A DNA stretch of 33,070 nt, taken from a virus (taxonomy: Duplodnaviria > Heunggongvirae > Uroviricota > Caudoviricetes). Positions 11,127 to 33,070 of the stretch are shown here, one piece after another. Location: positions 1 through 33,070 of the IMG/VR virus record IMGVR_UViG_2698536341_000022. One strand, given 5' to 3'. Position 1 is the first letter of the stretch, and the number at the start of each line of letters is the position of its first letter. The notes under the pieces are model-generated. The model saw nothing but the letters and a program-made list of their open reading frames with translations, searched no databases and had not been told where the DNA came from. The position numbers and the translations under genes were made by a program.

Positions 11127-11550
11127 CTTATCCTTCCACAAAACATTGGATTAGTCTGTAATTTATTTAATCTTAACGCCGAGCTCAATACTTTAACATC
11201 ACTTCTTCTGGCGATTGCTATGAGCCCTTCTTGATAAAAAGTTCGATCGGGAAACTGATCCTTTATGCCACAAGTTTTCTAGCTATCCTCAAAAAATTGG
11301 TGTTAAAACTGTGCCAACAAAGTTGCAAGGTTCGCTTCTCGCTCACAGCGAACTTTCATCTTTGTAAACCCGTATGATTCGCTTTTCAGCAGTCATTCAG
11401 ATACGGATTTACGCTTCCCTTGGCAGCGCATGACTATGACGCATGAGATCGCATGATCGTTTGAGGATCGTTTTTGCTGAAGTCAGCCAGAACTGGCGTG
11501 CTTTTGCTTATGTCATGCAGGTGCATGAAAACCACTACATAAAGCGGGCA

Positions 11551-16211: not shown

Positions 16212-16257
16212 GGCACAAACCTACAGCCTTGAATGACGGCTTTCCCCGCCTGCGGTT

Positions 16258-16275
16258 TGTGTGGTTGTCGGTACA
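16258..16275. promoter_or_regulatory. Ogr/Delta-type late activator box (TGT-N12-ACA) in the divergent P / O promoter region
   Basis: TGTgtggttgtcggtACA in the 142-bp gap between the P and O start codons; P2 late promoters carry this dyad. Confidence 0.6.
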
Positions 16276-16353
16276 AATACCGCGCATTGTTTCACTGCCC
16301 CCATCACCGCAACCATAAGGCTCCAGTAAGTTTTTTCTAACGGAGCACGGCTC

Positions 16354-17166: not shown

Positions 17167-17182
17167 TGGAGCACAAAACCTG

Positions 17183-18241
17183 ATGAAGAAGAATACCCGC
17201 TTTGCTTTTAACGCTTACCTGCAGCAGCTGGCGCGTCTGAACGGTGTGGCAGTTGAAGAACTGTCCAGCAAATTCACCGTAGAGCCGTCTGTACAGCAGA
17301 CGCTGGAAGACCAGATCCAGCAGTCCGCCGCATTCCTGACGCTGATTAACGTTACGCCAGTGACTGAGCAGTCCGGTCAGCTGCTTGGATTGGGTGTTGG
17401 CAGCACCATTGCCGGAACCACTGATACCACCGCGAAAGAGCGTGAGCCTGTCGATCCGACGCTGATGGTCGATGTGGAATATAAATGCGAGCAGACTAAC
17501 TTTGACACGGTGCTGACCTACGCGAAGCTGGACCTGTGGGCGAAGTTTCAGGATTTCCAGGTGCGTATCCGTAACGCCATCGTGAAACGTCAGGCACTGG
17601 ACCGCATCATGATCGGCTTTAACGGCGTGAAGCGTGCGAAAACCTCCAACCGTAGCGAAAACCCGCTGCTGCAGGATGTGAATAAAGGCTGGCTGCAGAA
17701 AATCCGTGAGGATGCACCGGATCACGTCATGGGCAGCACCACCACGGGCGGTGAAACCACACCGGGCGCGGTGAAAGTCGGTAAAGGTGGCGAATATGCC
17801 AACCTGGACGCCGTGGTGATGGATGCCGTTAATGAGCTTATCGACGTGGTCTACCAGGACGATGACGATCTGGTGGTGATTTGCGGTCGTGAACTGCTGT
17901 CTGACAAGTATTTCCCGCTGGTCAACAAAGAGCAGGAAAACAGTGAAAAACTCGCTGCCGATATGATCATCAGTCAGAAACGCATGGGTGGCCTGCAGGC
18001 CGTGCGTGCGCCGTTCTTCCCGCCGAATGCGTTGCTAATCACCCGTCTGGATAACCTGTCCATCTACTGGCAGGAAGACACCCGCCGCCGTTCAGTTATC
18101 GACAACCCGAAACGTGACCGGATTGAAAATTTTGAATCCGTTAACGAAGCCTATGTGGTTGAGGACTACCGCTGCGCCGCACTGGTGGAAAACATCCAGA
18201 TTGGCGACTTCAGCGCCGCCGCAGCAGAAACCGGAGCGTAA
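17183..18241 (+). CDS. N: Major capsid protein (P2 gpN family)
   Basis: TRFAFNAYL...KFTVEPSV...YASLDALVMDA... matches my recollection of P2 gpN; 352 aa. Confidence 0.9.
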   Translation: MKKNTRFAFNAYLQQLARLNGVAVEELSSKFTVEPSVQQTLEDQIQQSAAFLTLINVTPVTEQSGQLLGLGVGSTIAGTTDTTAKEREPVDPTLMVDVEYKCEQTNFDTVLTYAKLDLWAKFQDFQVRIRNAIVKRQALDRIMIGFNGVKRAKTSNRSENPLLQDVNKGWLQKIREDAPDHVMGSTTTGGETTPGAVKVGKGGEYANLDAVVMDAVNELIDVVYQDDDDLVVICGRELLSDKYFPLVNKEQENSEKLAADMIISQKRMGGLQAVRAPFFPPNALLITRLDNLSIYWQEDTRRRSVIDNPKRDRIENFESVNEAYVVEDYRCAALVENIQIGDFSAAAAETGA

Positions 18242-18244
18242 TCC

Positions 18245-18895
18245 ATGAGCCTGAGTCCCGCACGGCAGCATCGCCTGCGCGTTCAGGCTGAACAGGCCGC
18301 CCGTGAGGGCGGCAGTGTTCGCCACGCGTCGGGCTATGACCTGATGCTGCTGCAACTGGCGGAAGACCGCCGCCGTCTCAAGGGCGTTCAGTCCACGGTG
18401 AAAAAAGCGGAAATAAAGGTGGAGCTGCTGCCGAAATATGCCGCCTGGGCGGAGGGCGTTCTGGCTGCCGGAGGCGCTCAACAGGATGACGTGCTGATGT
18501 ACGTGATGCTGTGGCGCATTGATGCCGGAGATTATGCCGGGGCGCTGGAGATCGGGCGTCATGCCCTGCGTCATGGCTGGGTGATGCCGCTGGGTAACCG
18601 CAACGTGCAGACCGTGCTGGCAGAGGAAATGGCAGACGCGGCGCAGAGCGCAATGCTTGCTGCCACCGGCTTTGATGCCGATCTGTTGCTGCAGACGCTG
18701 GAGCTGACAGACGGTCTGGATATGCCGGATCAGTCACGGGCGCGTCTGCATAAAGCGATTGGCGCGGTCCTGAGTGAAGGCAATCCGGCGTCTGCCCTTA
18801 ATCATCTCAACCATGCGTTACAGCTCGATCCCCGCTGTGGCGTGAAAAAAGACAAACAGCAGCTGGAGCGCAGACTGCGCAATGACAGCCGCTGA
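18245..18895 (+). CDS. M: Terminase small (endonuclease) subunit (P2 gpM family)
   Basis: Position after N; GAQQDD...MLWRIDAGD.AGALEI segment resembles P2 gpM. Confidence 0.8.
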   Translation: MSLSPARQHRLRVQAEQAAREGGSVRHASGYDLMLLQLAEDRRRLKGVQSTVKKAEIKVELLPKYAAWAEGVLAAGGAQQDDVLMYVMLWRIDAGDYAGALEIGRHALRHGWVMPLGNRNVQTVLAEEMADAAQSAMLAATGFDADLLLQTLELTDGLDMPDQSRARLHKAIGAVLSEGNPASALNHLNHALQLDPRCGVKKDKQQLERRLRNDSR

Positions 18896-18990
18896 CAGAA
18901 CGTGCCCCCGCGCACGGGCGGCACGGGGTGGCGAAAGGCACTGCCACATCAAAACCCCGTCCACCGCCCTCTATTTCAGGAGAAAGCAGC

Positions 18991-19455
18991 ATGAAGTTTG
19001 TTGCGCCAGAACAGGCACCGGAACAGGCGGAAATCATCAGAAATACGCCGTTCTGGCCTGATGTGGACCTGTCGGAGTTTCGCAGTGTCATGCGCACTGA
19101 CGGCACGGTGACGCAGCCGCGTTTAAAGCAGGTTGCGCTGTCGGCAATTTCGGAGGTCAACGCAGAGCTGTATGAGTTTCGCAGACGCCAGCAGATGCTG
19201 GGGTATGCCTCGCTGGCAGAAGTCCCGGCGGAACAACTGGACGGCAAAAGCGAGCGCATTCAGCACTATTTCAACGCGGTTTACTGCTGGGCACGCGCCA
19301 TGCTCAACGAACGTTACCAGGACTATGACGCCACGGCATCCGGTGCGAAGCGAGGCGAGGAACTGGCGGAAGCAAGCGGTGATTTATGGCGTGACGCCCG
19401 CTGGGCCATCAGCCGGGTGCAGGATGCGCCGCACTGCACAGTGGAGCTTATCTGA
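18991..19455 (+). CDS. L: Head completion/stabilisation protein (P2 gpL family)
   Basis: Track ORF 18928..19455; start taken at ATG 18991 with AGGAG RBS; position after M. Confidence 0.75.
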   Translation: MKFVAPEQAPEQAEIIRNTPFWPDVDLSEFRSVMRTDGTVTQPRLKQVALSAISEVNAELYEFRRRQQMLGYASLAEVPAEQLDGKSERIQHYFNAVYCWARAMLNERYQDYDATASGAKRGEELAEASGDLWRDARWAISRVQDAPHCTVELI

Positions 19456-19658
19456 TGAAAGTGCGTGCGCATCAGTATGACACGGTGGACGCACTTTGCT
19501 GGCGTCATTACGGGCGCACGCAGGGTGTCACGGAGCAGGTACTGAAGGCAAATCCGGGGCTTGCCGAATACGGCCCCTTTTTACCTCACGGGCTGCAGGT
19601 GGAGCTGCCGGACATTCCGACCACCACCACCGTGCAGACCGTCCAGCTATGGGACTGA
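19455..19658 (+). CDS. X: Tail protein X (P2 gpX family, 67 aa)
   Basis: Small ORF overlapping the L stop (TGATG), immediately before the lysis cassette as in P2. Confidence 0.7.
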   Translation: MKVRAHQYDTVDALCWRHYGRTQGVTEQVLKANPGLAEYGPFLPHGLQVELPDIPTTTTVQTVQLWD

Positions 19659-19661
19659 ATT

Positions 19662-19877
19662 ATGACGCTTGAGCGAATCAGCGCCTTTATCACGTATTGC
19701 ATCGCCGTCGTGCTGGCCTGGCTGGGCGATTTGTCCATCAAGGATGCCTCAACGCTGGGCGGCCTGATGATTGGTGTGCTGATGCTGGCTATCAACTGGT
19801 ACTACAAACATAAAGCCTACCAGCTTCTGCGCGACGGGCAGATCTCGCGGGAGGACTATGAATCCATCAATCGTTAA
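19662..19877 (+). CDS. Holin, two predicted transmembrane segments (possible pinholin, 71 aa)
   Basis: Two hydrophobic stretches (ISAFITYCIAVVLAWLGDL, LGGLMIGVLMLAINWYY) and a charged C-terminus; immediately upstream of the endolysin. Confidence 0.7.
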   Translation: MTLERISAFITYCIAVVLAWLGDLSIKDASTLGGLMIGVLMLAINWYYKHKAYQLLRDGQISREDYESINR

Positions 19878-20370
19878 ACGCTGCCTTGTCGGGGCCGTGC
19901 TGGCTATTGCAGCTACGTTGCCGGGTTTTCAGCAGCTTCACACCTCCGTGGAGGGGCTGAAACTAATTGCCGATTACGAAGGCTGCCGTCTGCAGCCGTA
20001 TCAGTGCAGTGCAGGTGTCTGGACCGACGGCATTGGTAATACATCGGGCGTCATTCCCGGCAAAACAATCACGGAACGACAGGCAGCAGAAGGGCTGATT
20101 TCCAACGTGCTGCGTGTGGAGCGGGCACTGGAAAGGTGTGTGAAGCAACAGCCGCCGCAAAAGGTGTATGACGCGGTGGTGTCGTTTGCCTTCAACGTGG
20201 GAACGGGCAATGCCTGCAGTTCCACACTGGTGAAATTACTCAATCAGCGGCTCTGGGCGGATGCGTGCCGACAGTTGCCGCGCTGGGTTTATGTAAAAGG
20301 TGTGTTTAATCAGGGGCTGGATAACCGCCGTGCGCGGGAGATGGCCTGGTGTTTACAGGGAGCAAACTGA
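19858..20370 (+). CDS. Endolysin (lysozyme), probable signal-anchor-release type
   Basis: Position after the holin; N-terminal Gly/Ala-rich hydrophobic segment (VGAVLAIAATLPGF) as in SAR endolysins, followed by a lysozyme-like domain (GVWTDGIGNT). Confidence 0.75.
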   Translation: MNPSIVKRCLVGAVLAIAATLPGFQQLHTSVEGLKLIADYEGCRLQPYQCSAGVWTDGIGNTSGVIPGKTITERQAAEGLISNVLRVERALERCVKQQPPQKVYDAVVSFAFNVGTGNACSSTLVKLLNQRLWADACRQLPRWVYVKGVFNQGLDNRRAREMAWCLQGAN

Positions 20371-20371
20371 A

Positions 20372-20749
20372 ATGAAAAAGAAATTAATCAGCGGACTGTT
20401 TCTGATGTTATGGATGGCGCTGTTAATCGCAGCAATGGTGTATCCGCAGGGGATTTTTCCGGTACTGGCAGCGTCCGGCGTTTGGGTAGCCTGTTTGCTG
20501 ACATGGGCGGTAATTCCGGTAGCACTGGCTGCGTTAATTAAGAATGGCCCGCTCTGGCAGGAGTTAAGGGCATCTTTACTGAAGACAATTACCCGAAAAG
20601 AAAACGTATTTATCAGTTGGGTGATGCGATTGCTGATTGTTGTAAGTCTCGCCTGGACGGGGTGGGCTATTACCCTGGTCTTTTATCTACTGACCGTTAT
20701 TGCCTTCTGGATCACCCGTAATCAGATGGCGAAACAGGTAGCAGCATGA
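20372..20749 (+). CDS. lysA: Lysis-timing membrane protein (P2 LysA-like, four hydrophobic segments)
   Basis: Track ORF 20300..20749, start taken at ATG 20372; strongly hydrophobic; position between endolysin and spanin genes. Confidence 0.6.
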   Translation: MKKKLISGLFLMLWMALLIAAMVYPQGIFPVLAASGVWVACLLTWAVIPVALAALIKNGPLWQELRASLLKTITRKENVFISWVMRLLIVVSLAWTGWAITLVFYLLTVIAFWITRNQMAKQVAA

Positions 20750-21174
20750 ACCGGTTGCTGCTGGTTGTGCTGGCGTTATTACTGGCGGCGCTGGGCTGGC
20801 AGACGTGGCGGCTGGCTGATGCCAGCCAGACCATCAGCACGCAGGCAGACGAGCTGCAGAGCAAAAGCCAGGCACTGGCAAAGAGCAACAGCCAGCTTAT
20901 CAGCCTGTCCATTCTGACTGAAACCAATAACCGGGAGCAGGCGCGGCTCTATGCCGAAGCAGAACAGACCAGCACGCTGCTGAGACAACGACAACACCGG
21001 ATCGAGGAACTGAAACGTGAGAACGAGGATTTACGCCGCTGGGCTGATACTCCTTTGCCTGCTGACATTATCCGGCTGCGGAAACGTCCGGCACTCACCG
21101 GAGGTATGGCTTACCGTCAGTGGTTGTCCGCGAGTGACGCCGTGTCGGCTGGATCAGGCAACGCCGCGCACTAA
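20746..21174 (+). CDS. lysB: Spanin inner-membrane subunit (Rz-like, P2 LysB-like)
   Basis: N-terminal TM segment (LLLVVLALLLAALGW) followed by a charged, coiled-coil-like region; overlaps the next gene in another frame, as Rz/Rz1 pairs do. Confidence 0.7.
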   Translation: MNRLLLVVLALLLAALGWQTWRLADASQTISTQADELQSKSQALAKSNSQLISLSILTETNNREQARLYAEAEQTSTLLRQRQHRIEELKRENEDLRRWADTPLPADIIRLRKRPALTGGMAYRQWLSASDAVSAGSGNAAH

Positions 21175-21307
21175 CGGTGATCTGAACGCGTTGCTGGATG
21201 AAACGGAGGCCGCCTGGGCGGTCTGTGCAGACAAAGTGGACATGATTATTGCGTGTCAGGAGCGAAACAGTGAACAAACCACAATCCCTGCGCCACGCCC
21301 TCAATAA
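21017..21307 (+). CDS. lysC: Spanin outer-membrane lipoprotein subunit (Rz1-like, P2 LysC-like)
   Basis: Lipobox LTLSGC after a hydrophobic leader; begins inside lysB in a different frame; start codon uncertain (GTG 21017). Confidence 0.6.
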   Translation: MRTRIYAAGLILLCLLTLSGCGNVRHSPEVWLTVSGCPRVTPCRLDQATPRTNGDLNALLDETEAAWAVCADKVDMIIACQERNSEQTTIPAPRPQ

Positions 21308-21701
21308 AGCGGTGCCTTATGTCCGCAATAACCCGGACAAACTGCATCTGTTTGTGGATAACGGTTCGCTGGTTGCCACGGGGGCCAGCTCCATGTCGTG
21401 GGAGTACCGTTACACACTGAACGCGGTGATTGAGGATTTCAGCGGCGACCAGAATCTGCTGATGGCCCCGGTTTTGCTGTGGCTGAGGGATAACCAGCCC
21501 GATGCCATCAATAACCCGGCGTTACGGGAAAAGCTATTCACCTTTGAGGTGGATATTCTGCGCAACGATGTCTGTGATATCAGCCTGAACCTGCAACTGA
21601 CGGAACGTGTGCTGGTCAGCACTGACGGCAGTGTGTCGAGCGTTGAAGCTATAGCGGAACCTGATGCACCTGAAGAAATGTGGACGGTGAAACGTGGCTG
21701 A
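21270..21701 (+). CDS. R: Tail completion protein (P2 gpR family)
   Basis: Track ORF 21249..21701; start taken at GTG 21270 with AGGAG RBS; LFVDNGS...YTLNAVIEDF...LLWLRDNQPD resembles P2 gpR. Confidence 0.75.
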   Translation: MNKPQSLRHALNKAVPYVRNNPDKLHLFVDNGSLVATGASSMSWEYRYTLNAVIEDFSGDQNLLMAPVLLWLRDNQPDAINNPALREKLFTFEVDILRNDVCDISLNLQLTERVLVSTDGSVSSVEAIAEPDAPEEMWTVKRG

Positions 21702-22140
21702 ACTGCAGAAGGTGGACGACTGGCTGAGTGCCTTGCTGGCGAATCTGGAACCAGCCTCGAGAAGCCGCATGATGCGCCAGCTGGCGCAGGAACTTCGCCG
21801 GACACAGCAGCAGAATATCAGGATGCAGCGCAACCCTGACGGCAGCAGCTATGAACCGCGACGGGTAACAGCACGCAGTAAAAAAGGCCGTATCAAACGT
21901 CAGATGTTTGCAAAGCTGCGCACCACAAAATACCTGAAAACTGCCGCCAGCACCGACTCTGCCAGCGTGCAGTTTGAAGGCAAGGTGCAGCGCATTGCCC
22001 GCGTTCACCATTACGGCCTGCGAGATCGCGTCAGTCGTAAGGGACCGGAGGTGCGTTACGCAGAGCGTCGCCTTCTGGGTGTAAATGATGATGTTGAGGC
22101 AATGACCCGCGACATGATTCTGCAATGGCTGGCGGGGTGA
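21694..22140 (+). CDS. S: Tail completion protein (P2 gpS family)
   Basis: Position after R with overlapping stop/start (GTG 21694); size 148 aa. Confidence 0.7.
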   Translation: MAELQKVDDWLSALLANLEPASRSRMMRQLAQELRRTQQQNIRMQRNPDGSSYEPRRVTARSKKGRIKRQMFAKLRTTKYLKTAASTDSASVQFEGKVQRIARVHHYGLRDRVSRKGPEVRYAERRLLGVNDDVEAMTRDMILQWLAG

Positions 22141-22144
22141 TCTT

Positions 22145-22162
22145 TGTATCAGCACTGATACA
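22145..22162. promoter_or_regulatory. Ogr/Delta-type late activator box (TGT-N12-ACA) upstream of V
   Basis: TTGTATCAGcaCTGATACAA is a perfect 9-bp dyad containing TGT-N12-ACA, centred about 55 bp upstream of ATG 22209. Confidence 0.7.
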
Positions 22163-22208
22163 AGTTGCAGCACTGCCGCCTTTCTTCCCCTGATGGCAAC
22201 CTTTCCCT

Positions 22209-22787
22209 ATGAACGCACAATTAACCGAAATCATGCGCCTTATCACCAACCTGATCCGCACAGGGGTAGTCACCGAAGTGGACAGGGAAAACTGGCTTTG
22301 CCGGGTGAAAACGGGCGAGCTTGAAACCAACTGGATCAGCTGGCTGACGCTGCGTGCCGGGAATGCCCGTACATGGTGGCGACCATCGGAAGGTGAGCAG
22401 GTGGTGCTGCTGAGTCTGGGCGGCAATCTGGAAACCGCCTTTGCGCTGCCCGCTGTCTATTCGAATCAGTTCGCACCACCGTCGACGTCGGCGGACGCCT
22501 GCGTGACAGAACATCCTGACGGTGGCTGGTTTGAATACGAACCCGCCACCGGGCGCTGGTATGTCAGGGGCATCAAATCAATGGTCATTGAGGCTGCTGA
22601 CAACATCACCATGAAAACCAGTGAGTTTGTACTGGAGGCTGACCGCACGCGCATTAACAGCGAAGTGGTGATCAATGGTGGCGTTACCCAGGGCGGCGGA
22701 GCGATGAGTTCTAACGGGATCGTGGTTGATGCGCATCAGCATACTGGCGTCCTGAAAGGCGGCGATACAACCGGAGGCCCGGTATGA
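22209..22787 (+). CDS. V: Baseplate spike/assembly protein (P2 gpV family)
   Basis: Position and size (192 aa); first gene after the late promoter box. Confidence 0.8.
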   Translation: MNAQLTEIMRLITNLIRTGVVTEVDRENWLCRVKTGELETNWISWLTLRAGNARTWWRPSEGEQVVLLSLGGNLETAFALPAVYSNQFAPPSTSADACVTEHPDGGWFEYEPATGRWYVRGIKSMVIEAADNITMKTSEFVLEADRTRINSEVVINGGVTQGGGAMSSNGIVVDAHQHTGVLKGGDTTGGPV

Positions 22788-23143
22788 CGCTTTATAGCGG
22801 GATGAACAATACCAGCGGCAAAGTCATTACTGATATTGATCATCTGCGCCAGTCGGTGCGGGACATTCTGCTGACACCGCAGGGTAGCCGTATTGCCCGC
22901 CGGGAATATGGTTCCCTGCTGTCGGCACTGATAGATCAGCCACAAAATCCGGCATTACGCCTGCAGGTCATGTCGGCAGTGTATGTGGCGCTGAGTCGCT
23001 GGGAGCCACGGTTGACGCTGGATTCCATCACCATCAACAGCAATTTTGACGGTTCAATGGTGGTGGAGCTGACCGGGCGGCGGAATAACGGTGTGCCTGT
23101 GTCCCTTTCCGTATCAACAGGAGCAGAGAATGGCAGTGATTGA
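22784..23143 (+). CDS. W: Baseplate wedge protein (P2 gpW family)
   Basis: 119 aa; overlaps the V stop (ATGA); P2 synteny. Confidence 0.8.
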   Translation: MTLYSGMNNTSGKVITDIDHLRQSVRDILLTPQGSRIARREYGSLLSALIDQPQNPALRLQVMSAVYVALSRWEPRLTLDSITINSNFDGSMVVELTGRRNNGVPVSLSVSTGAENGSD

Positions 23144-24038
23144 CCTTTCGCAGTTGCCTGCACCGCAGATTGTGGATGTGCCGGACTTTGAGACGCTGCT
23201 TGCCGAACGCAAGGCAGAATTTGTGGCGCTTCATCCGAAAGATGAGCAGGAAGCAGTGATCCGCACGCTGGAACTGGAATCTGAACCCGCCACTAAATTG
23301 TTGCAGGAGAATGCTTACCGTGAGTTGCTTCTGCGCCAGCGCATTAACGAAGCCGCGCAGGCGGTGATGGTGGCTTACGCGATGGGCGGCGATCTTGACC
23401 AGCTCGCTGCCAACTACAACGTGACACGCCTGACGGTGACGCCTGCTGATAATGATGCTGTGCCGCCCGTTGCAGCTGTGATGGAAAGCGATGAAGCGTT
23501 ACGCCTGCGTGTGCCTGCAGCCTTTGAAGGGCTTTCTGTTGCGGGGCCAACTGCAGCTTATGAATTTCATGCCCGAAGCGCCGACGGTCGGGTGGCGGAT
23601 GCCAGTGCAACCAGCCCGGCACCTGCAGAGGTGGTGCTGACTGTCCTTAGCCGCGAAGGCGATGGAACTGCAGAAAAAGACCTGCTGGACGTGGTGGAAA
23701 AAGCTCTGAACAGTGAGAACGTCCGCCCGGTGGCTGACCGTCTTACGGTTTGCAGCGCAGAAATCATCCCGTATCGCGTGGAAGCCACCATTTTTCTCTA
23801 TCCTGGACCGGAAGCAGAGCCGGTAATGGCAGCGGCAAAAGCCAGCCTGCAGAAGTACATCGCCAGTCAGACGCGTCTTGGTCGGGATATTCGCCGTAGC
23901 GCCATCTTTGCCGCCCTGCATGTTGAGGGGGTGCAGCGTGTGGAGCTGGCTTCTCCTCTGGCGGATGTGGTCCTGAACAAAACACAGGCGGCATCATGTA
24001 CGCAGTGGAGCGTAACCAACGGAGGAACGGATGAATAG
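23130..24038 (+). CDS. J: Baseplate protein J (P2 gpJ family, 302 aa)
   Basis: Track ORF 23091..24038; start taken at ATG 23130 with AGGAG RBS; size equals P2 gpJ. Confidence 0.8.
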   Translation: MAVIDLSQLPAPQIVDVPDFETLLAERKAEFVALHPKDEQEAVIRTLELESEPATKLLQENAYRELLLRQRINEAAQAVMVAYAMGGDLDQLAANYNVTRLTVTPADNDAVPPVAAVMESDEALRLRVPAAFEGLSVAGPTAAYEFHARSADGRVADASATSPAPAEVVLTVLSREGDGTAEKDLLDVVEKALNSENVRPVADRLTVCSAEIIPYRVEATIFLYPGPEAEPVMAAAKASLQKYIASQTRLGRDIRRSAIFAALHVEGVQRVELASPLADVVLNKTQAASCTQWSVTNGGTDE

Positions 24039-24636
24039 TTTGCTGCCACCGGGTTCAACACCACTGGAGCGCCGACTGGCGCAAACCTGCAGCGGGATTT
24101 CTGATCTGCAGGTGCCGCTTCGTGACTTGTGGAATCCGGCAACCTGTCCGGTCAGTTTCCTGCCTTATCTCGCCTGGGCGTTCTCTGTGGATCGCTGGGA
24201 CGAGGGCTGGACAGAAAGCGTCAAGCGCCAGGTGGTGAAGGATGCTTTTTATATTCATCAGCATAAAGGGACCACCAGTGCCGTGCGGCGGGTGGTGGAG
24301 CCGTTCGGATTCCTGATCCGCATTATTGAGTGGTGGCAGACCGGAGAAACACCGGGCACGTTTCGCCTGGATATCGGCGTGCAGGACCAGGGCATCACTG
24401 AAGATACCTATCTGGAACTTGAGCGACTGATAAGCGATGCCAAACCATGTAGCCGCCACATGATCGGCATGTCCATCAATCTGCAGACCAGCGGCCCGCA
24501 TTGGGTGGGAGCCGCCAGCTATCTTGGCGAAGAAATCACGATCTATCCGTATATCAACGAAACGATTATTTCCGGTGGCACCGCGCATGAAGGCGGGGCG
24601 GTCCATGTTATTGACACAATGAGAGTGAATCCATGA
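24031..24636 (+). CDS. I: Baseplate protein I (P2 gpI family)
   Basis: Overlaps the J stop; position before tail-fibre gene H. Confidence 0.8.
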   Translation: MNSLLPPGSTPLERRLAQTCSGISDLQVPLRDLWNPATCPVSFLPYLAWAFSVDRWDEGWTESVKRQVVKDAFYIHQHKGTTSAVRRVVEPFGFLIRIIEWWQTGETPGTFRLDIGVQDQGITEDTYLELERLISDAKPCSRHMIGMSINLQTSGPHWVGAASYLGEEITIYPYINETIISGGTAHEGGAVHVIDTMRVNP

Positions 24637-26138
24637 GCACAAAATTTTATACCCTGCTGACGGATATTGGCGCGGCGAAACTTGCCAGCGCCGCCGCGCT
24701 CGGTGTGCCGCTAAAAATTACCCATATGGCGGTGGGCGATGGCGGTGGAGTATTGCCAACGCCGGACGCAAAGCAGACGGCACTGGTAAATGAGAAACGC
24801 CGGGCTGCGCTGAATATGCTTTATATCGACCCGCAGAACAGCAGCCAGATTATTGCCGAACAGGTGATCCCTGAAAACGAGGGCGGTTGGTGGATACGTG
24901 AAGTGGGCTTGTTTGATGAGTCCGGGGCATTGATTGCCGTGGGCAACTGCCCGGAAAGCTATAAGCCGCAACTGGCTGAAGGTAGCGGGCGCACTCAGAC
25001 CGTGCGCATGGTGCTGATTACCAGCAGCACGGACAATATCACCCTGAAAATCGACCCTGCTGTAGTGCTGGCAACCCGCAAGTATGTGGATGACAAGGCA
25101 CTGGAGCTGAAGGTGTACGCGGATGATCAGATGGCAAAACATCTTGCCGCACCGGACCCGCATTCACAGTACGCGCCAAAAGCCAGCCCGACATTTACCG
25201 GAACCCCCAAAGCGCCAACGCCAGCGGCGGGGAATAATACCACGCAGGTTGCGACCACTGCGTTTGTACAGGCGGCACTGACGGCCCTTATTAATGGTGC
25301 GCCAGCCACGCTGGACACGCTGAAAGAAATAGCCGCAGCCATTAACAATGATCCGAATTTCAGTACCACCATTAACAATGCGCTGGCACTAAAAGCACCG
25401 TTGTCGAGTCCGGCACTCACCGGAACGCCAACAGCCCCCACGGCGGCGCAGTCGGTCAACAATACACAGATTGCCACTACGGCTTTTGTGAAATCGGCGA
25501 TTGCAGGAATGGTGGGTTCTGCACCTGCTGCACTGGATACACTGAACGAACTGGCGGCGGCACTGGGGAATGATCCGAACTTTGCCACGACAATGCTTAA
25601 TGCGCTGGCAGGTAAACAACCGCTGGACAATACGCTTACCAATTTGAGTGGAAAGGATGTAGCTGGTCTTCTCACATACCTTGGTTTGGGAGAAGGTGCT
25701 CCAGCTATTGGCGTTCCGTTCTTCTGGCCGTCCGCTGCAATGCCAAATACTGTAATCGACAGCTGGTCCAGTATGGTGTTTTTGAAGTTCAACGGCGCGA
25801 AATTCTCTGCCACTGATTATCCTGTGCTGGCGAAAGTATTTCCTTCGCTGGTATTACCTGAAGCCCGCGGTGATTTCATTCGTATCTGGGATGACGGGCG
25901 AGGTGCAGACGGTGGTCGCGAATTATTAAGCTGGCAGGAAGCTACAAACTTTTCTCAGTTTGCCGGGAATATAGGCGGAGGTGCGGGACACGCAATTAAC
26001 TTTCATGATGGCATCGCCGGAAATCAGCCAGGATTTTCACGATTTAATTTCACCAGTAACTCTGTGGGTGATGGTGTGAATTTTGTTGCTGTCAGACCGC
26101 GAAATATTGCATTTAACTTTCTGGTGAGGGCTAAATAA
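24633..26138 (+). CDS. H: Tail fibre protein (P2 gpH family) with a Mu/P1 S-type variable C-terminal domain (501 aa)
   Basis: N-terminal MSTKFYTLLTDIGAAKLA... is typical of P2-like H; repeated TTAFV motifs; C-terminal IRIWDDGRGADGGRE-type motif as in invertible-segment tail fibres. Confidence 0.85.
   Translation: MSTKFYTLLTDIGAAKLASAAALGVPLKITHMAVGDGGGVLPTPDAKQTALVNEKRRAALNMLYIDPQNSSQIIAEQVIPENEGGWWIREVGLFDESGALIAVGNCPESYKPQLAEGSGRTQTVRMVLITSSTDNITLKIDPAVVLATRKYVDDKALELKVYADDQMAKHLAAPDPHSQYAPKASPTFTGTPKAPTPAAGNNTTQVATTAFVQAALTALINGAPATLDTLKEIAAAINNDPNFSTTINNALALKAPLSSPALTGTPTAPTAAQSVNNTQIATTAFVKSAIAGMVGSAPAALDTLNELAAALGNDPNFATTMLNALAGKQPLDNTLTNLSGKDVAGLLTYLGLGEGAPAIGVPFFWPSAAMPNTVIDSWSSMVFLKFNGAKFSATDYPVLAKVFPSLVLPEARGDFIRIWDDGRGADGGRELLSWQEATNFSQFAGNIGGGAGHAINFHDGIAGNQPGFSRFNFTSNSVGDGVNFVAVRPRNIAFNFLVRAK
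25669..25694. other. Gin/Hin-type crossover-like site inside H at the constant/variable junction
   Basis: TTCTCACATACC-TT-GGTTTGGGAGAA: two 12-bp half-sites in inverted orientation (10 of 12 positions complementary) around a 2-bp core; identity with the second copy at 32742 begins exactly at the core. Confidence 0.55.
25681..26009 (+). repeat. 329-bp segment of H (3' coding region) duplicated 100% in direct orientation at 32742-33070
   Basis: Compared base by base in the sequence; the second copy runs to the window edge, so the repeat may be longer. Confidence 0.95.
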
Positions 26139-26224
26139 TGAAACCTGTTTTTGATGAAAATGGGCTGGCATGATGCTGAATGCCGGAGTTTTGTTGCTTT
26201 TGTTAAGCAGTTCAGAGCTGAAAT

Positions 26225-26710
26225 TCACGACAGCAGCCCTCCCACCGTTTTACTGATATCGCTTAAGGCAGACGTTGCCGTTTCCTGCAGATTATTCAGT
26301 TGCGCACTGAGATCACCGAACATATCGGACAGGGATTCATCCACCCGTTTGAGCGACAGGGTGAACTCAATCCGGCGCGGCATACCGTCGCGGAAAAACT
26401 CCGTTTTAGTCTGATTCAGTCCCTCAATCACATACATGCCATAAATCGTGCCGCTGCCTTCAATCAGGGGCCATGCTTTCCCCTGTTCTGCCATCTGCTC
26501 CAGTGCCAGCAACGACAGCCTGCCACCTGTTATCTCCGGCATAAGAACACCGGAAAGCGTCAGCATGTCGTTGTCCGGTCCCAGAAACTGCGTGGACGGA
26601 CGTCGGTTTACCCGGCTGTTTGCCGCATGTCGCCAGCTGCGTTGATACTGCAGCTCCTGATACGGCACGGTGCGCAGCATAAACACGTACAATCCCAGCA
26701 CCATCATCAT
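26225..26710 (-). CDS. U: Tail protein U (P2 gpU family, 161 aa)
   Basis: Position immediately downstream of T on the minus strand with overlapping stop/start; size; P2 synteny. Confidence 0.8.
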   Translation of the reverse strand: MMMVLGLYVFMLRTVPYQELQYQRSWRHAANSRVNRRPSTQFLGPDNDMLTLSGVLMPEITGGRLSLLALEQMAEQGKAWPLIEGSGTIYGMYVIEGLNQTKTEFFRDGMPRRIEFTLSLKRVDESLSDMFGDLSAQLNNLQETATSALSDISKTVGGLLS

Positions 26711-29700
26711 GCGTCGTATCCCCCCTGATCGCTGTAGTTACTCCTGGCTTTTGCCTTCAGCCTACGTTCACGTTCATCAAGCTGGCGGGCCACCTCCCGC
26801 GCAATATCCTGCGCACTTTGTCCTGGCTGCGTCTGAATGATGATCTGCATCGGTGCCTCAATCCGTTGAACGGGCGGCACAGTGGCTGCACGACTCACCA
26901 TCGCTTCGCCGCCTTTCGCGGGAAGTGCCAAAGGGTGCAACGGTGGAAGCTCTGCAGGCGCGGCAGCAACGCCCATCATTCCGGCAACAACGGCAGCCAG
27001 TGCAGCTGTATTTCTCCGGCTGGTCACATTTGCCGGGCCGTTAACAATTTCCGGCCCGTTTTCACCGACGATGCCAAACTGCCCGCGCGGGATATAGCCG
27101 CCGCTGTCATACATCCCCGCAAAGCCATATCCCCATGACGGAAAACCACCCGATGGCATCATCACTTTACCGTCTGCATTCACCGTCGCAGGTTGCTGAC
27201 GCGTCACGCTTTCCGGCAGTTTCGCCTTTGCAGCCTCTTTACTGACAATGCCGAGTTTATCCAGCAACCAGGAAACGCCAGATTTCAGGGAGTCCAGCGG
27301 ATGCATAACCATATTCAGCCCTTCCGCCAGTGCCTCCCCGAATCGTCGCCCCATTGCCGCTGCGCTCTGCAGTTCGGCAGAAGTCGACTTAACGGGCGTC
27401 AGCAGATCAGTAAACCAGCCCCACAGCGCCTGCACTTTGTCACCAATCCACTGGAACACAGGCTTAAGCGGTTCGAACGCTGCACTGATGGGACCTGCCG
27501 CCGCTTTGAATCCTTCCACCACGCCACCGAGAAATGCGGTGATGGGTTGCCAGTATTTCCAGACAACCAGTGCCACACCCGCCAGTGCAGTAACCACAAG
27601 ACCTATCGGACTGAGCAGAGCACCTAACAGACCAGATACGGCATACAGGGCAACGCGCAACATCGCCAGTGGACCAGATGCCAGTACTCGCAGCACCGTG
27701 CCTGCGGCAGCCAGCCCGCCGCGTAGTGCTGCCAGTGGATTCATAAACATCACAGCAACCGCACGTAAACCGGATAATCCAGACCGCAAAAGTGCAACCG
27801 GCGCACCTGCTACAGTTTTCAGGACATTTCCCGTCAGTGATGCCGTGCGGCGCAAAGACGACAACGGCGCAGTAAGTAAACCTGCGGCGTTGCCCGATGA
27901 AGCAAGCCCGCGTCGCAGCAGTGCCAGTGGTGCGCCAGCCAGCCAGGACAACGCGCTGCTGGTTCGAGTTACTGCTGCCGTAACGGAAGATAACGTTTTG
28001 ATACCCAACACAGAGAATCCCAGACGGATCACTGCCAGCGGCCCCAGCACTGCAGCCAGCGCCACCGCTAAGGTGCCGAGGCCGACGGTAACCGCAGCCA
28101 CAACAGCCGATGCTTTCATCAGTGTGCCTGTCAGTTCCGGGTTAGCTTCCACCCAGCGACGCAACGCCCCCGTGACGCTTTTCACCGTGTACAGAATATC
28201 CATCAGCGGCTGGCGCAGCGTTTCGCCCAGGCTGCTGAAGGTGTTCTGCGCTCCGGTTTTGACCAGCAACCACTGCGCAGAAAGTGAATCCTTGTTAATG
28301 TCGGATTCTTTCTGCATGGAGCCGAGCGCATCATTGCCCGCTGTCAGTTTTAACTGACGCTGCAGTTCCGGCAGGTTGTTTGCCAGTTTCGCCGCGTCAT
28401 CGCCAAACTCTTTACCAAACAACATAGTCATGGCAGACAGGCGCTTGTCCTGCGGCAGCGCGTTTACCTTCTCCAGCACGCGCTGGATGGTTCCCATCGC
28501 ATCCTTCGTCATCTGCTTTTCAATCACTTCAGGATTGAGTTTCAGCAGATTCATCCCTTCAAAGAAACTCTTGCTTTGCATGGTGGCAATGGACAATTCA
28601 CGCACCATCGCGTTTGCTGCACTGGCTGCAACCTCTGGCGCAGCGCCCAGTGTCAGGAAGGTGGAACCCAGCGCCGCCGCTTTACGATAATCCAGACGGT
28701 CAGCCACACCGCCCAGACGTTGCATCACATCAATGATGTCTGCCCCTTTCGACATGGCGTTATCATCCAGATAGTTCAGCGCATCACCGAGCTGTTCAAT
28801 ATTGCGGGTGGGGATTTTGTAGAGCTGGGCGATTTTCCCCAGACTTTCTGACAGTTCATCCGCTGGCAGCTCAAAGGCTGTTGCCGCCTTTGCTGCCGTA
28901 CTGGCGAAGGCCAGCAGGTCACGTTTCTGATCTTCCCAGCTGTCGTCAGGGTTTGCGACGTTCATGCGCGCACCACCTTCAACCAGTGCAGCGAAGTCCA
29001 CCGCACCGTTTTCCATCGGCAACTGTTCGCTGGCAGCCTTGATGGCATCCTGCATTTCATAAAAACGTGCAGTGCGGTTGCCATTATCGTCACGCAGACC
29101 ATTGACCTGCTTTGCCACACCTTTCATGGCATCTTCCATGCTGGTATAGCTTTTTACTGCCGCCATCACTGGCGCACCCATTGCCAGCCCTGCAGCCGTG
29201 GTGGTGGCTCCGGCACCTGCAATACGATCACGCACCTCCAGCGAACGGGCATAACTGGCACGCGCTGCATTCATCCTGCGCTGAGCTTCCCCCAGTCGCT
29301 TCAGCCGCGCCTCCTGTTTCGAAAGTTCCTGGTTATAACGTGATGTTTCACGGGCTAAACGGGCAGTTGCTCCCGCATCGTCTTTCGCAGAAATTCCCGC
29401 CCGGTACAGTTCAGCACGCACAAGCGCCGTCTGCTGCTGCAGCTTTTTCTGGCGTTCTTCCAGGCGCTGAACAGCCAGCCGTTGACGGCCCAGAGCAACA
29501 ACCTGACGTTGCGAAGGCGGCCCCATCGCTCCCAGTTCCTGACTGAGCAAATTTGCACGCTGGCGGGCATAGTTCAGCCTGTCGCCTAATTTCTGATTTT
29601 CTGCCTGCAGCTTTCGGAAGCTGTCCAGACTGCTCCCGGCCTGATCAAGCTGCTTTATTGCATCGCGGGATTTTTTGACAGCAGCAGCCAGTTCTCTTGA

Positions 29701-29784
29701 ACTGGCCTGCGCAGATCGAAATGGACGGGTGAGCTTGTCAACCGCATTAAGAATGACCTGCAGACGCAGGTTGTTATCACTCAT
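26707..29784 (-). CDS. T: Tail tape measure protein (P2 gpT family, 1025 aa)
   Basis: Very long, Ala-rich protein with coiled-coil N-terminal region and hydrophobic central segments; follows E/E'. Confidence 0.85.
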   Translation of the reverse strand: MSDNNLRLQVILNAVDKLTRPFRSAQASSRELAAAVKKSRDAIKQLDQAGSSLDSFRKLQAENQKLGDRLNYARQRANLLSQELGAMGPPSQRQVVALGRQRLAVQRLEERQKKLQQQTALVRAELYRAGISAKDDAGATARLARETSRYNQELSKQEARLKRLGEAQRRMNAARASYARSLEVRDRIAGAGATTTAAGLAMGAPVMAAVKSYTSMEDAMKGVAKQVNGLRDDNGNRTARFYEMQDAIKAASEQLPMENGAVDFAALVEGGARMNVANPDDSWEDQKRDLLAFASTAAKAATAFELPADELSESLGKIAQLYKIPTRNIEQLGDALNYLDDNAMSKGADIIDVMQRLGGVADRLDYRKAAALGSTFLTLGAAPEVAASAANAMVRELSIATMQSKSFFEGMNLLKLNPEVIEKQMTKDAMGTIQRVLEKVNALPQDKRLSAMTMLFGKEFGDDAAKLANNLPELQRQLKLTAGNDALGSMQKESDINKDSLSAQWLLVKTGAQNTFSSLGETLRQPLMDILYTVKSVTGALRRWVEANPELTGTLMKASAVVAAVTVGLGTLAVALAAVLGPLAVIRLGFSVLGIKTLSSVTAAVTRTSSALSWLAGAPLALLRRGLASSGNAAGLLTAPLSSLRRTASLTGNVLKTVAGAPVALLRSGLSGLRAVAVMFMNPLAALRGGLAAAGTVLRVLASGPLAMLRVALYAVSGLLGALLSPIGLVVTALAGVALVVWKYWQPITAFLGGVVEGFKAAAGPISAAFEPLKPVFQWIGDKVQALWGWFTDLLTPVKSTSAELQSAAAMGRRFGEALAEGLNMVMHPLDSLKSGVSWLLDKLGIVSKEAAKAKLPESVTRQQPATVNADGKVMMPSGGFPSWGYGFAGMYDSGGYIPRGQFGIVGENGPEIVNGPANVTSRRNTAALAAVVAGMMGVAAAPAELPPLHPLALPAKGGEAMVSRAATVPPVQRIEAPMQIIIQTQPGQSAQDIAREVARQLDERERRLKAKARSNYSDQGGYDA

Positions 29785-30213
29785 CGTTGGCCCCGCTTCT
29801 CTGAATCGCTTTATACCGCCATTCCAGCACTTCGGTCAGCGGCATAACGTCAGTAACGGATGGCGGCCAGTGAAAAATGGTGGCGATATCTGCCACCAGA
29901 TCGTCAACCGTCAGGCTGTCGGTAAACCGGCAAGCACCGACTTCTTCAACAAAAAAGTGACAACCTCAACCGACATGGCAGTGAGATCTGCCGGGTCCAT
30001 CTCTGCAATTTCCTGTGCAGTCAGTGCCGGACTGGAGATGCGGGGGATCACGGTCATCATCGCGTTTACATCCATATCCATAATGGCCTGCAGGCGTGTA
30101 CCGCGCAGCGCACCGGACTGCGGTTTACGCAGCACAATTTCGGTGATTTCTGTTTTACCGCGCTTGATGGGGGTATCCAGTTGAATGGTCTTTTCAGTCT
30201 GCTTATCGCTCAT
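29777..30213 (-). CDS. E': Tail assembly chaperone E+E' made by programmed -1 ribosomal frameshift (about 141 aa)
   Basis: Slippery heptamer T_TTT_TTG on the minus strand (window 29950-29956); the -1 frame stays open for 53 codons to a TGA at 29777-29779, overlapping the T start. Same architecture as P2 E/E'. Confidence 0.7.
29911..30213 (-). CDS. E: Tail assembly chaperone E (P2 gpE family, 100 aa)
   Basis: Small ORF between tail tube and tape measure; ends ...VVTFLLKKSVLAGLPTA with the slippery heptamer inside. Confidence 0.8.
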   Translation of the reverse strand: MSDKQTEKTIQLDTPIKRGKTEITEIVLRKPQSGALRGTRLQAIMDMDVNAMMTVIPRISSPALTAQEIAEMDPADLTAMSVEVVTFLLKKSVLAGLPTA

Positions 30214-30267
30214 TTTGCTGTCCTGTCAATTGGGTTCTGGCGCGGTATCCCGCGCCGTTCAGATATA

Positions 30268-30783
30268 TCAGAGGCCGAGGGCGTTGCGGTGCGCTTCCAT
30301 CAGGTCCACACCGTCCACAATTTCCACCATGTTGATAAGGTCCACTTCATAGAGCACCTCACCATTGATGGTCAGCTTCGCGTAGCTGTTGGTACTGGTC
30401 ACTTTGGTGGTGTTGCTTTCGCCCGTCTTCCACTCGCCGGAATCCACTTCTTTGTGACGTCCACGCACGACAAGCTCCACGGCCTGCACTTCCCCGGTAT
30501 CGTCACGCTGAATAGAGCCGGTAAAGCGCAGCTGGATGCCATCCACCGTGGCTTTACCCATCTGTTTAAACAGCAGCAATTCAGTACCACCAATGGAAAA
30601 TTCTGTGTCCAGCGCACTGTCATCAAGCCCCAGATCCACATCCACCGCACCCGGCATTCCGCCGCCGCGATACTTCTCATATTTGCGGGTAAATTTCGGC
30701 AGCGTCAGCGACTCAACGATCCCCTGCCAGTTGTTCCCGTCGTTAAACAGGTTCAGGTGTTTTAATTTGCGTGGTAATGCCAT
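30268..30783 (-). CDS. FII: Tail tube protein (P2 gpFII family, 171 aa)
   Basis: Size and position downstream of FI; P2 synteny. Confidence 0.85.
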   Translation of the reverse strand: MALPRKLKHLNLFNDGNNWQGIVESLTLPKFTRKYEKYRGGGMPGAVDVDLGLDDSALDTEFSIGGTELLLFKQMGKATVDGIQLRFTGSIQRDDTGEVQAVELVVRGRHKEVDSGEWKTGESNTTKVTSTNSYAKLTINGEVLYEVDLINMVEIVDGVDLMEAHRNALGL

Positions 30784-30792
30784 GTTGTCCCC

Positions 30793-31965
30793 TTACGCGC
30801 TGACCTGGCTGGCGAAATTCACCAGGTACTGATCGGTGATGCGCTGACGCAGCATCAGGTTTTCAAGTGGCGGCACTGGCGTGTAGTCGTAGTCGATGGT
30901 GAGTTTTCCGGCTTTCAGCGTGTCTTTGTCGTTCACCGACTCATCCAGCCAGCAATCACCACCAATGAGATAGCCCTGACTGACCAGGCTGCGCATTTTG
31001 GCGCGGATACCTTCGATAATGTCGCGGGCCAGCGACGGGTTAAGCGGTTTATCCACCGCCCACATGTGTGCTTCTGCCATCGTGTCCATCAGCACCTGCG
31101 CCGTGCGGGTGTAGTTTTCGAAGGCAAAGAGCGGGTCATCACTCAGGCAGCGGGAACCCCAGAAGCGGAAACCGTCTTTACGCACAAGCGTGGTGACGTC
31201 GTTCTGGTTCAGCAGACCTGCATCGGTTGCCGGGTCCTGCAGATCCCAGAACACATCTGCAGAAATTCCGGTGACACCGTTCACGCCCACGTTGGACAGG
31301 CTTTTGTGCCATCCGGTCTGCTCGTCAATTTTGGCGCGCAGACCAAGCGCACGGGCGGTGGCATATGCCGTTGCTTCGGCATTCAGCACCGTGTCCCAAC
31401 CAGTAAAGTCAGGCCAGATCAGCATCCCTTCGCGCTGGCTGAAGTTTTCGCGGTAAGTGATCGCCTCCTGCACTGTCTTGCAGCCATACGCTGACAGGTA
31501 AGCAAATCCACGCAGGCGTTGCGCCACGCTCAGCAACTCAGTAGCTACCGCCTTGGTGTCGTGGCCTGGCACGCCGAGAATGCGCGGTTTAACGCCGAGC
31601 TGTGACTGGGCAGATAACAGGGCTTTCATACCTGTTTTTTTACCTTCAGCAGTCACTGCGCCGATGATATTGGTCGTGGTTTCGTCTTCCGTTTCACCCT
31701 GCGGCACACGCACAACAATGGTCACGGGTTTTGCCTGGTCAGCGATGGCATCCAGCGAACGGGCCAGAGTACCTGACTCACCCGCTTTACCGCTGGCAGT
31801 CAGCACATCAGTGATCAGCACGGGTTTATTAAGAGGAAACATTTTTGCATCGGCATCATCGCCCGTGCAGACCATACCCACGATGGCGGTGCTCACCGTG
31901 GTAATAGATCGGGTGCCTTCGTTGACTTCAACAACGCGCACCCCGTGGTGGTAATCCTGAGCCAT
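30793..31965 (-). CDS. FI: Contractile tail sheath protein (P2 gpFI family, 390 aa)
   Basis: Size, AGGAGG RBS, first gene of the FI-FII-E-T-U operon. Confidence 0.9.
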
Positions 31966-32041
31966 AGTGGCGAACCTCCTGATTGGATTAGGCTTCGCCC
32001 TATGTTGAAGTGATTGTGCCTGACAAACAGCTAAGCGCAGT

Positions 32042-32059
32042 TGTGTCGTTATTCACACA
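32042..32059. promoter_or_regulatory. Ogr/Delta-type late activator box (TGT-N12-ACA) upstream of FI
   Basis: TGTGTcgttattcACACA dyad about 85 bp upstream of the FI start codon on the minus strand. Confidence 0.6.
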
Positions 32060-32107
32060 AAATAACGGTATTTGTCTGCTTGCAGGGATAATCAACATAA
32101 TGCTGAT

Positions 32108-32674
32108 TCAGGGGGATTCATTGATCTTATTTGCCGGAAATTTTCTATAAATGGTAGAAACGCCTACATCAAAAATCAGTGCAATACGCTGTATTGATTC
32201 TCCGGCCTCGAGTAAACGCCCAATCTGTGCCCACTGTTCGGTGGTCAACTTAGGACGGCGTCCACCTACTCTGCCTTTGGCACGAGCTGCAGCCAGCCCT
32301 GCCCTGGTACGTTCAACTATCAGTTCGCGTTCCATTTCAGCCAGGGCACCCATGACATGAAAAAAGAAACGGCCCATTGGGGTACTGGTATCAATACTGT
32401 CAGTCAGGCTTCTGAAATTCACACCACGCTGGCGCAACTCTTCTATCAGCGTAACAAGATGCCGCATACTGCGCCCCAACCTGTCCAGCTTCCAGACAAC
32501 CAGCGTGTCTCCTGCCGATAGTGTCCTGAGTAGTTTTTTCAGCCCCGGTCTGTCGGACTTAGTGCCACTGATTTTGTCCTCAAAAATCCGCTCACATCCC
32601 GCGCAGTTCAGTGCATTACGTTGCAAATCGGTGTTCTGGTCATTTGTTGACACGCGTACATAGCCAATAAGCAT
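32108..32674 (-). CDS. Serine recombinase, DNA invertase of the Gin/Cin/Pin/Hin family (188 aa)
   Basis: MLIGYVRVSTNDQNTDLQRNAL...LVVWKLDRLGRSM...GRFFFHVMGALAEMERELI... is near-colinear with my recollection of Mu Gin; start taken at ATG 32674 (track ORF starts two codons earlier). Confidence 0.9.
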   Translation of the reverse strand: MLIGYVRVSTNDQNTDLQRNALNCAGCERIFEDKISGTKSDRPGLKKLLRTLSAGDTLVVWKLDRLGRSMRHLVTLIEELRQRGVNFRSLTDSIDTSTPMGRFFFHVMGALAEMERELIVERTRAGLAAARAKGRVGGRRPKLTTEQWAQIGRLLEAGESIQRIALIFDVGVSTIYRKFPANKINESP

Positions 32675-32729
32675 GATCATCCCCCTGAATAAAAACCGGA
32701 GATGATGCCAGTTAGCTGGTACCTCTGCA

Positions 32730-32755
32730 TTTTCTTAAACGTTGGTTTGGGAGAA
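32730..32755. other. Gin/Hin-type crossover-like site upstream of the invertase gene
   Basis: TTTTCTTAAACG-TT-GGTTTGGGAGAA; right half-site and core identical to the site in H; AAAC..GTTT dyad reminiscent of hix/gix sites. Confidence 0.55.
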
Positions 32756-33070
32756 GGTGCTCCAGCTATTGGCGTTCCGTTCTTCTGGCCGTCCGCTGCA
32801 ATGCCAAATACTGTAATCGACAGCTGGTCCAGTATGGTGTTTTTGAAGTTCAACGGCGCGAAATTCTCTGCCACTGATTATCCTGTGCTGGCGAAAGTAT
32901 TTCCTTCGCTGGTATTACCTGAAGCCCGCGGTGATTTCATTCGTATCTGGGATGACGGGCGAGGTGCAGACGGTGGTCGCGAATTATTAAGCTGGCAGGA
33001 AGCTACAAACTTTTCTCAGTTTGCCGGGAATATAGGCGGAGGTGCGGGACACGCAATTAACTTTCATGAT
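32742..33070 (+). pseudogene. Second copy of the tail-fibre variable C-terminal coding segment, lacking the H constant region; runs off the window
   Basis: 100% identical to 25681-26009; reading frame preserved (VGLGEGAPAIGVPFFWPS...); an in-frame ATG at 32705 exists but there is no H N-terminal region. Confidence 0.6.

Follow-up and report, generated by a model that had tools for sequence, protein, structure and literature searches.

How can two crossover sites of a tail-fibre switch, both joined to the same variable fibre sequence, come to lie in direct orientation in one prophage? The question is raised by a stretch of 33,070 nucleotides of DNA (the window), in which a 329-bp sequence to the right of the core of one site (copy 1, 25681-26009, plus strand) recurs to the right of the core of another (copy 2, 32742-33070, plus strand). 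In the window as given, a repeat finder reported the copies as a direct repeat, 7061 bp apart. The first-pass annotation had taken this orientation to be real on one molecule and to call for a non-standard explanation.

Prophage and gene order

The window corresponds to positions 30512-63581 of CYFK01000034.1 (63,583 bp; L006), a scaffold of the E. coli draft assembly GCA_001286445.1. It is a prophage of the P2-like type (Peduoviridae), inserted between ybjK and ybjL in E. coli. At its left end lies the integrase gene, followed by replication gene A, an accessory region and, on the minus strand, genes Q and P. Capsid, lysis and baseplate genes come next and lead to the tail-fibre gene H (24633-26138, plus strand), taken from the list of open reading frames, whose 501-aa product matches the Pfam family Phage_tail_fib (E=2.7e-65).

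In relatives, the genes are ordered H, G, [G' and Hv' on the minus strand], invertase, FI, FII, E, E', T, U, D and ogr, and the tail module is on the same strand as H. This normal order was found in Escherichia phage 500465-1, in strains SA31-1 and C2 and in four contigs with the exact H protein, which occurs in the prophages L004, L005, L016 and L017. All of the ten long contigs that encode an identical tape-measure protein likewise had the normal same-strand order.

Near-identical tail modules (99.8-99.9%) are found in P2-like prophages at two chromosomal sites. One adjoins ssrA and has a reverse-transcriptase gene as neighbour of ogr (L003, L009, L012, L015), and the other is between ybjK and ybjL (L010, L013, L014, L016). 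A strain with prophages at both sites would hold a 6.6-kb repeat. Such a repeat may explain that the longest contig carrying the tape-measure protein is only 5-10 kb long in 60 of the 237 collection blocks in which this protein occurs.

Crossover sites and invertase

Two 26-bp sites with imperfect 12-bp inverted half-sites around a TT core had been described in the annotation, and both are present. The left site, s1 (25669-25694, plus strand; core TT 25681-25682), has the sequence TTCTCACATACC TT GGTTTGGGAGAA; it lies within H, in frame, and encodes LLTYLGLGE. The right site, s2 (32730-32755, plus strand; core TT 32742-32743), has the sequence TTTTCTTAAACG TT GGTTTGGGAGAA and lies 67 bp upstream of the invertase start codon. 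On the complementary strand, s1 reads TTCTCCCAAACC AA GGTATGTGAGAA and s2 reads TTCTCCCAAACC AA CGTTTAAGAAAA. The pix sites in the published table of hix, gix, cix and pix sequences are TTCTCCCAAACC AA GGTTTTCGAGAG and TTCTCCCAAACC AA CGTTTATGAAAA. We re-read the pix sites of e14 from the K-12 genome for comparison and found s1 and s2 to be nearly identical to pixL and pixR; the reverse complement of s2 differs from pixR at one of 26 bases.

The 33 kb window was also searched with the Din-family consensus TTCNNNNAAACNNANGTTTNNNNGAA, allowing up to two mismatches. Only s1 and s2 were detected, each with a single mismatch on the better strand; 0.09 matches were expected by chance, and the observed count was reached in none of 100 shuffles. 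Alignment to the gix/cix/hix consensus, which the annotation had suggested, matched both 26-bp elements to the Hin/Gin/Cin/Pin family. By sequence, s1 and s2 are crossover sites of a Gin/Pin-type serine invertase.

The invertase gene (32108-32674, minus strand) encodes a Pin-like serine DNA invertase of 188 aa, as judged from Pfam, PDB and protein identity. Its product contains the Pfam domains Resolvase (E=2.8e-53) and HTH_7 (E=6.3e-16), and residues 1-184 align with the Gin crystal structure PDB 3UJ3 (E=1.4e-91), with the catalytic Ser9 in YVRVSTNDQ. The protein is 85% identical to PinE of e14 and 73% identical to Mu Gin, and it has the N-terminal catalytic serine and the C-terminal helix-turn-helix of the small serine recombinases of the Din family. 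Because of the homology of the invertase and the near-identity of the sites to the published pix sequences, we assign the system to the Hin/Gin/Cin/Pin (Din) family as a Pin-type member.

The 5' part of the invertase gene includes two conserved 15-mers of the form G-N13-C (32590-32653, minus strand). Their centres are 96 and 145 bp away from the core of s2, a spacing of 49 bp, and the DNA is conserved with pinE and gin. Their position agrees with that of the Hin enhancer, which is ~100 bp from hix and in which the Fis sites are spaced by 48 bp. By this analogy, 32590-32653 is a candidate for a Fis-type recombinational enhancer.

Two orientations of the segment in relatives

The tail-fibre gene consists of a constant part, Hc, which extends to about 25680, and a variable part, Hv_a (25683-26138). 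In relatives with the same flanks, a segment of ~1.75 kb is present in both orientations and differs by a clean inversion (L016 and L017 versus L013 and L014); s1 is the boundary of the inversion in these relatives too. The segment is composed of two convergent cassettes, each with its own assembly gene, from which the fibre C-termini fuse in frame to the constant N-terminal part. In state 1 (L004, L005, L016, L017), Hc is followed by GGTTTGGGAGAA-Hv_a, and GGTTTTGGAGAA-Hv_b adjoins the invertase side; its product in relatives is an H protein of 501 aa with a Caudo_TAP gene of 197 aa. In state 2 (L002, L013, L014), the joints are swapped, and the product is an H protein of 447 aa with a Caudo_TAP gene of 142 aa. 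The variable cassettes themselves encode 152 aa (Hv_a) and 97 aa (Hv_b).

The segment-side half-sites GGTTTGGGAGAA and GGTTTTGGAGAA differ by one base, and this difference moves with the segment; the exchange is therefore confined to the 7 bases TT GGTTT. With both orientations found in relatives and the swap narrowed to these bases, the proposal that H is a phase-variable tail fibre was borne out. In all relatives for which we read the sites, L014 among them, the two were inverted and flanked the segment beside the invertase.

We propose that the order in the phage itself is Hc - s1 - [Hv_a G_a G_b(-) Hv_b(-)] - s2 (inverted) - invertase - FI FII E E' T U D ogr. If the enzyme works as Hin and Gin do, its dimers would bind both 26-bp sites, and an enhancer occupied by Fis, within the 5' part of the invertase gene itself, would activate them. 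Ser9 would cut both sites, in a staggered fashion, at the central TT/AA dinucleotide; one pair of subunits would rotate by 180 degrees, and religation of the DNA would leave the 1.75-kb segment flipped. Hc would thus become fused either to Hv_a, giving the 501-aa fibre with chaperone G_a, or to Hv_b, giving the 447-aa fibre with chaperone G_b. As in analogous fibre switches, the swap would be predicted to change receptor specificity.

Two copies of the same cassette in the window

In the window, Hv_a is present on both sides and Hv_b is lacking altogether; of the switch, it contains Hc, Hv_a twice and only 31 nt of G_a. Copy 1 comprises the core, the segment-side half-site and the first 108 codons of Hv_a, and with Hc it forms the joint of state 1. 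Copy 2 is Hv_a joined to the invertase side, which is the joint of state 2, and its contig ends 2 nt past the window. The annotation had described a common right half-site, 329 identical base pairs and unrelated left flanks, and our base-by-base comparison agrees: the copies are 100% identical over the 329 bp from the TT core to the end of the window, and the sequences to the left of s1 and s2 are unrelated. The boundary of identity likewise falls at the core, as had been noted, since the last mismatch (C versus G, half-site position 12) directly adjoins TT and identity starts at 25681 and 32742.

Each of the joints is common on its own. Among complete E. coli genomes, 48 have the Hc-Hv_a joint and 256 have the invertase-Hv_a joint, and the invertase-s2-Hv_a joint is also present in L002, L013 and L014. 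In the assembly studied here, both joints occur together.

A probable scaffold junction at 26170

Alignment of window positions 14633-33070 with CYFK01000034.1 revealed one difference in 18,438 bases. It lies at 26170, a scaffold gap at which the record has N and the window shows A. Ambiguous bases were apparently replaced in the window, so scaffold gaps are masked in the raw sequence.

To the left of the gap, the sequence ends with the start of the tail-fibre assembly gene G_a (26139-26169, plus strand), of which the first 31 nt are present; the gene has 197 codons in relatives. We refer to this left part as contig A and to the right part, up to the end of the window, as contig B. Contig B is reversed and carries the tail module between 26171 and 32729 on the minus strand: the first 19 codons of D (26171-26228), U (26225-26710), the tape-measure gene T (26707-29784), E/E' between T and FII, the tube gene FII (30268-30783), the sheath gene FI (30793-31965) and the invertase gene, all 100% identical to L014. 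At the junction, codon 11 of G_a meets codon 19 of D head to head, without homology or microhomology, and the junction as drawn would cut short two essential genes.

Both sides of the junction have uninterrupted counterparts. Over 11,537 bp, the left side has a single mismatch to L008, in which G_a, G_b and Hv_b follow in the normal way; L004 likewise runs on normally past the end of contig A. The right side (26171-33070) matches L014, a contig of 2.17 Mb with normal gene order, in reverse and without a mismatch in 6,900 bp. The junction itself was found in none of 5,426 complete E. coli genomes, and no exact match was obtained in the viral, genome (two patterns) and metagenome contig collections. 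A 63-aa D'-fusion reading frame that spans the junction in the window is not on record, as expected with N at this position. Sister assemblies have ybjK-int to the left of the prophage, and L014 and L016 have ogr-ybjL to its right; contigs A and B therefore fit one prophage.

Because the junction is a one-base gap between contigs, the adjacency and orientation of the two parts have no continuous sequence behind them. We conclude that the window very probably consists of two draft contigs joined through a single N, the second of which (26171-33070) was placed backwards, and that the direct orientation of the copies is a scaffolding artefact. The premise that the direct repeat lies on one molecule and needs a special explanation is accordingly not upheld: the second copy belongs to a separate, reversed contig behind the N. 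With contig B turned round, s1 and s2 are inverted, as in the relatives whose sites were read. The annotation had also expected the rest of the segment past the right edge of the window, where CYFK01000034.1 ends after another 2 nt; the remaining parts of G_a and D as well as G_b, Hv_b and ogr are simply absent from the scaffold.

Could the layout nevertheless be real? An illegitimate rearrangement (inverted or tandem duplication plus deletion) might have left the tail module backwards after codon 11 of G_a and two copies of Hv_a behind sites in direct orientation, with the N being merely an uncalled base. A scaffolder needs some link between the two contig ends, and CYFK01000034.1 is recorded in two samples and in one further similar place, both of which would suit such a rearrangement. 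The junction, however, falls exactly on the only N in 18.4 kb, is devoid of microhomology and is absent from all genomes and contig collections searched, and L014, the relative with 100% identity, has the normal order. Moreover, no single inversion reproduces the window, for which an extra duplication of Hv_a and the 5' part of G_a would be required. We therefore regard a real rearrangement as unlikely. The recurrence of the layout would fit either a pipeline artefact in related isolates or, less likely, a real clonal rearrangement.

Other rearrangements were considered and rejected. A single inversion between G_a codon 11 and D codon 19 that starts from state 1 predicts Hv_b at s2, and one that starts from state 2 predicts junctions of the 5' part of G_a with the 3' part of D and of the 3' part of G_a with the 5' part of D; neither is seen in the window. 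An invertase event at pseudo-sites was discarded as well, as the breakpoints in G_a and D do not resemble the site consensus.

A further proposal is that the invertase recombined direct sites, or acted between molecules, and thereby generated a circle or tandem unit of 7,061 bp with the invertase and tail genes on it; the identity boundary at the core would be its scar. Such a unit, measured from core to core, gives exactly the observed joint of invertase, left half of s2, TT and Hv_a. It also presupposes that the 5' parts of G_a and D truly adjoin, which is improbable, and the invertase-s2-Hv_a joint that it was meant to explain is the ordinary joint of state 2, found in the 256 complete genomes mentioned above. 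Wild-type Fis-dependent invertases such as Hin and Gin strongly disfavour deletion between direct sites. We consider this proposal barely credible.

If the head-to-head join of G_a and D were real in the clone, which strikes us as improbable, two functional pix-like sites, each with an identical Hv_a, would point the same way at a distance of 7 kb and would enclose the invertase gene and its putative enhancer. Such a locus would offer a natural test of whether wild-type invertases of the Fis-dependent kind ever cut out or amplify a circle of 7,061 bp with their own gene on it.

SSPACE and ABySS write a single 'n' between linked contigs with a non-positive gap estimate, and the minimum gap in GapFiller can be one N; a single N written by such a tool would fit the record CYFK01000034.1. 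Against the scaffolding artefact, our preferred reading, a de Bruijn assembler normally does not output an identical 329 bp twice, and we assume that contig extension or gap filling after assembly lies behind the doubled stretch. Nor would short-insert read pairs from a flipping 1.75-kb segment obviously link the end of G_a to the end of D.

We also asked whether contig B ends where the ybjL- and ssrA-type prophages diverge, as it would at a repeat boundary. Their nearest difference lies 11 bp beyond the end of the contig, and no clear boundary was apparent. A 17-nt imperfect inverted repeat between Hv_a and Hv_b coincides with the contig end at the right of the window (CAATTAACTTTCATGAT versus CAATTAACTGGAATGAT; window 33054-33070; L004 11361-11377 and 12639-12655). 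As a cause of the contig break it is too short and too imperfect, and its position there is probably a coincidence.

Joints of both states in one assembly

Read as two contigs, the window would contain the Hc-s1-Hv_a joint of state 1 in contig A and the invertase-s2-Hv_a joint of state 2 in contig B. A normal single molecule cannot hold both joints, and the simplest reading is therefore a culture with both states, of which the assembly kept one joint each. Most probably, then, the two copies of Hv_a represent the same DNA in both flip states of a mixed culture. In clonal cultures of E. coli, the tail-fibre segments of P2-like prophages have been shown experimentally to invert all the time, which gives rise to mixed read populations (PMC4272514).

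Alternatively, contig B could stem from a second P2-like prophage, elsewhere in the genome, that likewise has Hv_a as its silent cassette, so that two real loci were mis-scaffolded. In many E. coli genomes there are several P2-like prophages whose tail modules are nearly identical; those of the ssrA type, L003, L009, L012 and L015, are 99.8-99.9% identical to window 26171-32756, and the 60 collection blocks whose longest contig with the tape-measure protein is short would suit this idea as well. Against it, contig B is 100% identical over 6,900 bp, with the s2-Hv_a joint included, to the prophage between ybjK and ybjL in L014, whose Hc region is in turn 99.97% identical to contig A. The ssrA-type prophages examined have other cassettes and differ at no fewer than nine positions, and the two Hv_a copies show no difference in 329 bp. 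A second prophage as the source of contig B thus appears very doubtful. In the mixed-culture reading that we favour, the presence of two joints in one assembly speaks indirectly for an active switch in the culture that was sequenced.

Relation to known switches

The Pin system of e14 with its P segment (K-12; pinE, stfP/ycfK, tfaP, tfaE, stfE) resembles the present switch in more than its invertase, which has the 85% identity given above. Its pix sites have the same TT/AA core and the same segment-side half-site, GGTTTGGGAGAA, and the layout also agrees: a constant fibre part, a site, two convergent cassettes with assembly genes, an inverted site and the invertase gene. Unlike e14, which is a lambdoid remnant, the window has its switch between the tail sheath gene and H of a P2-like prophage that looks intact, and the Hv_a and Hv_b cassettes are different sequences from those of e14.

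For the Gin system of Mu (G segment), the match of the invertase to the Gin structures 3UJ3 and 4M6F is full-length, in addition to the 73% protein identity, and gin DNA is ~80% conserved with the window over the aligned region from the site to the 5' coding sequence. Mu Gin and P1 Cin (C segment) have 26-bp sites of the same consensus as the window; as here, a site lies just upstream of the invertase gene and S/U-type pairs of fibre and chaperone are switched. By contrast, the gix core is GA/TC instead of TT/AA, the segment in Mu and P1 is 3 kb rather than 1.75 kb long, and the host phage belongs to another family. The Hin system of Salmonella (H segment) is of the same family and has 26-bp AA/TT-core sites; its enhancer lies ~100 bp from one site inside the recombinase gene, as the candidate enhancer does here, but Hin flips a promoter for flagellin genes whereas the present switch flips a coding cassette.

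The segments of P2-like E. coli prophages (EPEC E2348/69; Goldberg et al. 2014, PMC4272514) are elements of the same kind in the same phage family. Nothing essential distinguishes them from the window, only the layout of the pieces in the draft assembly. In Escherichia phage 500465-1 (Wadgaonvirus), the tail module is 99.1% identical and the sites are the same. The closest relatives of the element are thus e14 Pin and the sequenced P2-like Wadgaonvirus phages, and the inversion of tail-fibre cassettes by Pin/Gin-type invertases in P2-like E. coli prophages is already known; the locus holds no new biology.

The window does illustrate how such a locus can mislead. A single N, here shown as A, can conceal a scaffold join, and when an invertible segment flips in the growing culture, both of its joints can end up in one draft record and look like an odd duplication. 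Anyone who scans draft genomes for unusual repeats should look out for hidden joins and for the joints of flipped segments.

Further variation among close relatives

Among the prophages with an identical 1025-aa tape-measure protein (L009-L018), H occurs in at least seven lengths (447, 465, 500, 501, 504, 513 and 519 aa), and the cassette pairs differ. The variable segment is therefore exchanged between phages that are otherwise near-identical.

The accessory region of the window contains an anti-phage defence pair, SIR2-HerA, on the minus strand (8227-11141), in the hotspot between gene A/DinI and the portal gene Q. SIR2 (10083-11141) was identified by PADLOC (E=6e-211) and belongs to Pfam SIR2_2 in relatives; HerA (8227-10107; PADLOC E=7e-267) belongs to DUF87 in relatives. 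A candidate two-gene defence system follows on the plus strand (11722-13373). It comprises PDC-M03A (304 aa; PADLOC E=2e-122), which is without a Pfam family, and PDC-M03B (246 aa; PADLOC E=3e-93), which has a HIRAN domain. In the close relatives L025, L027 and L028, a single PIN_12 gene occupies the place of PDC-M03A/B, and the slot at 11722-13373 is therefore exchangeable.
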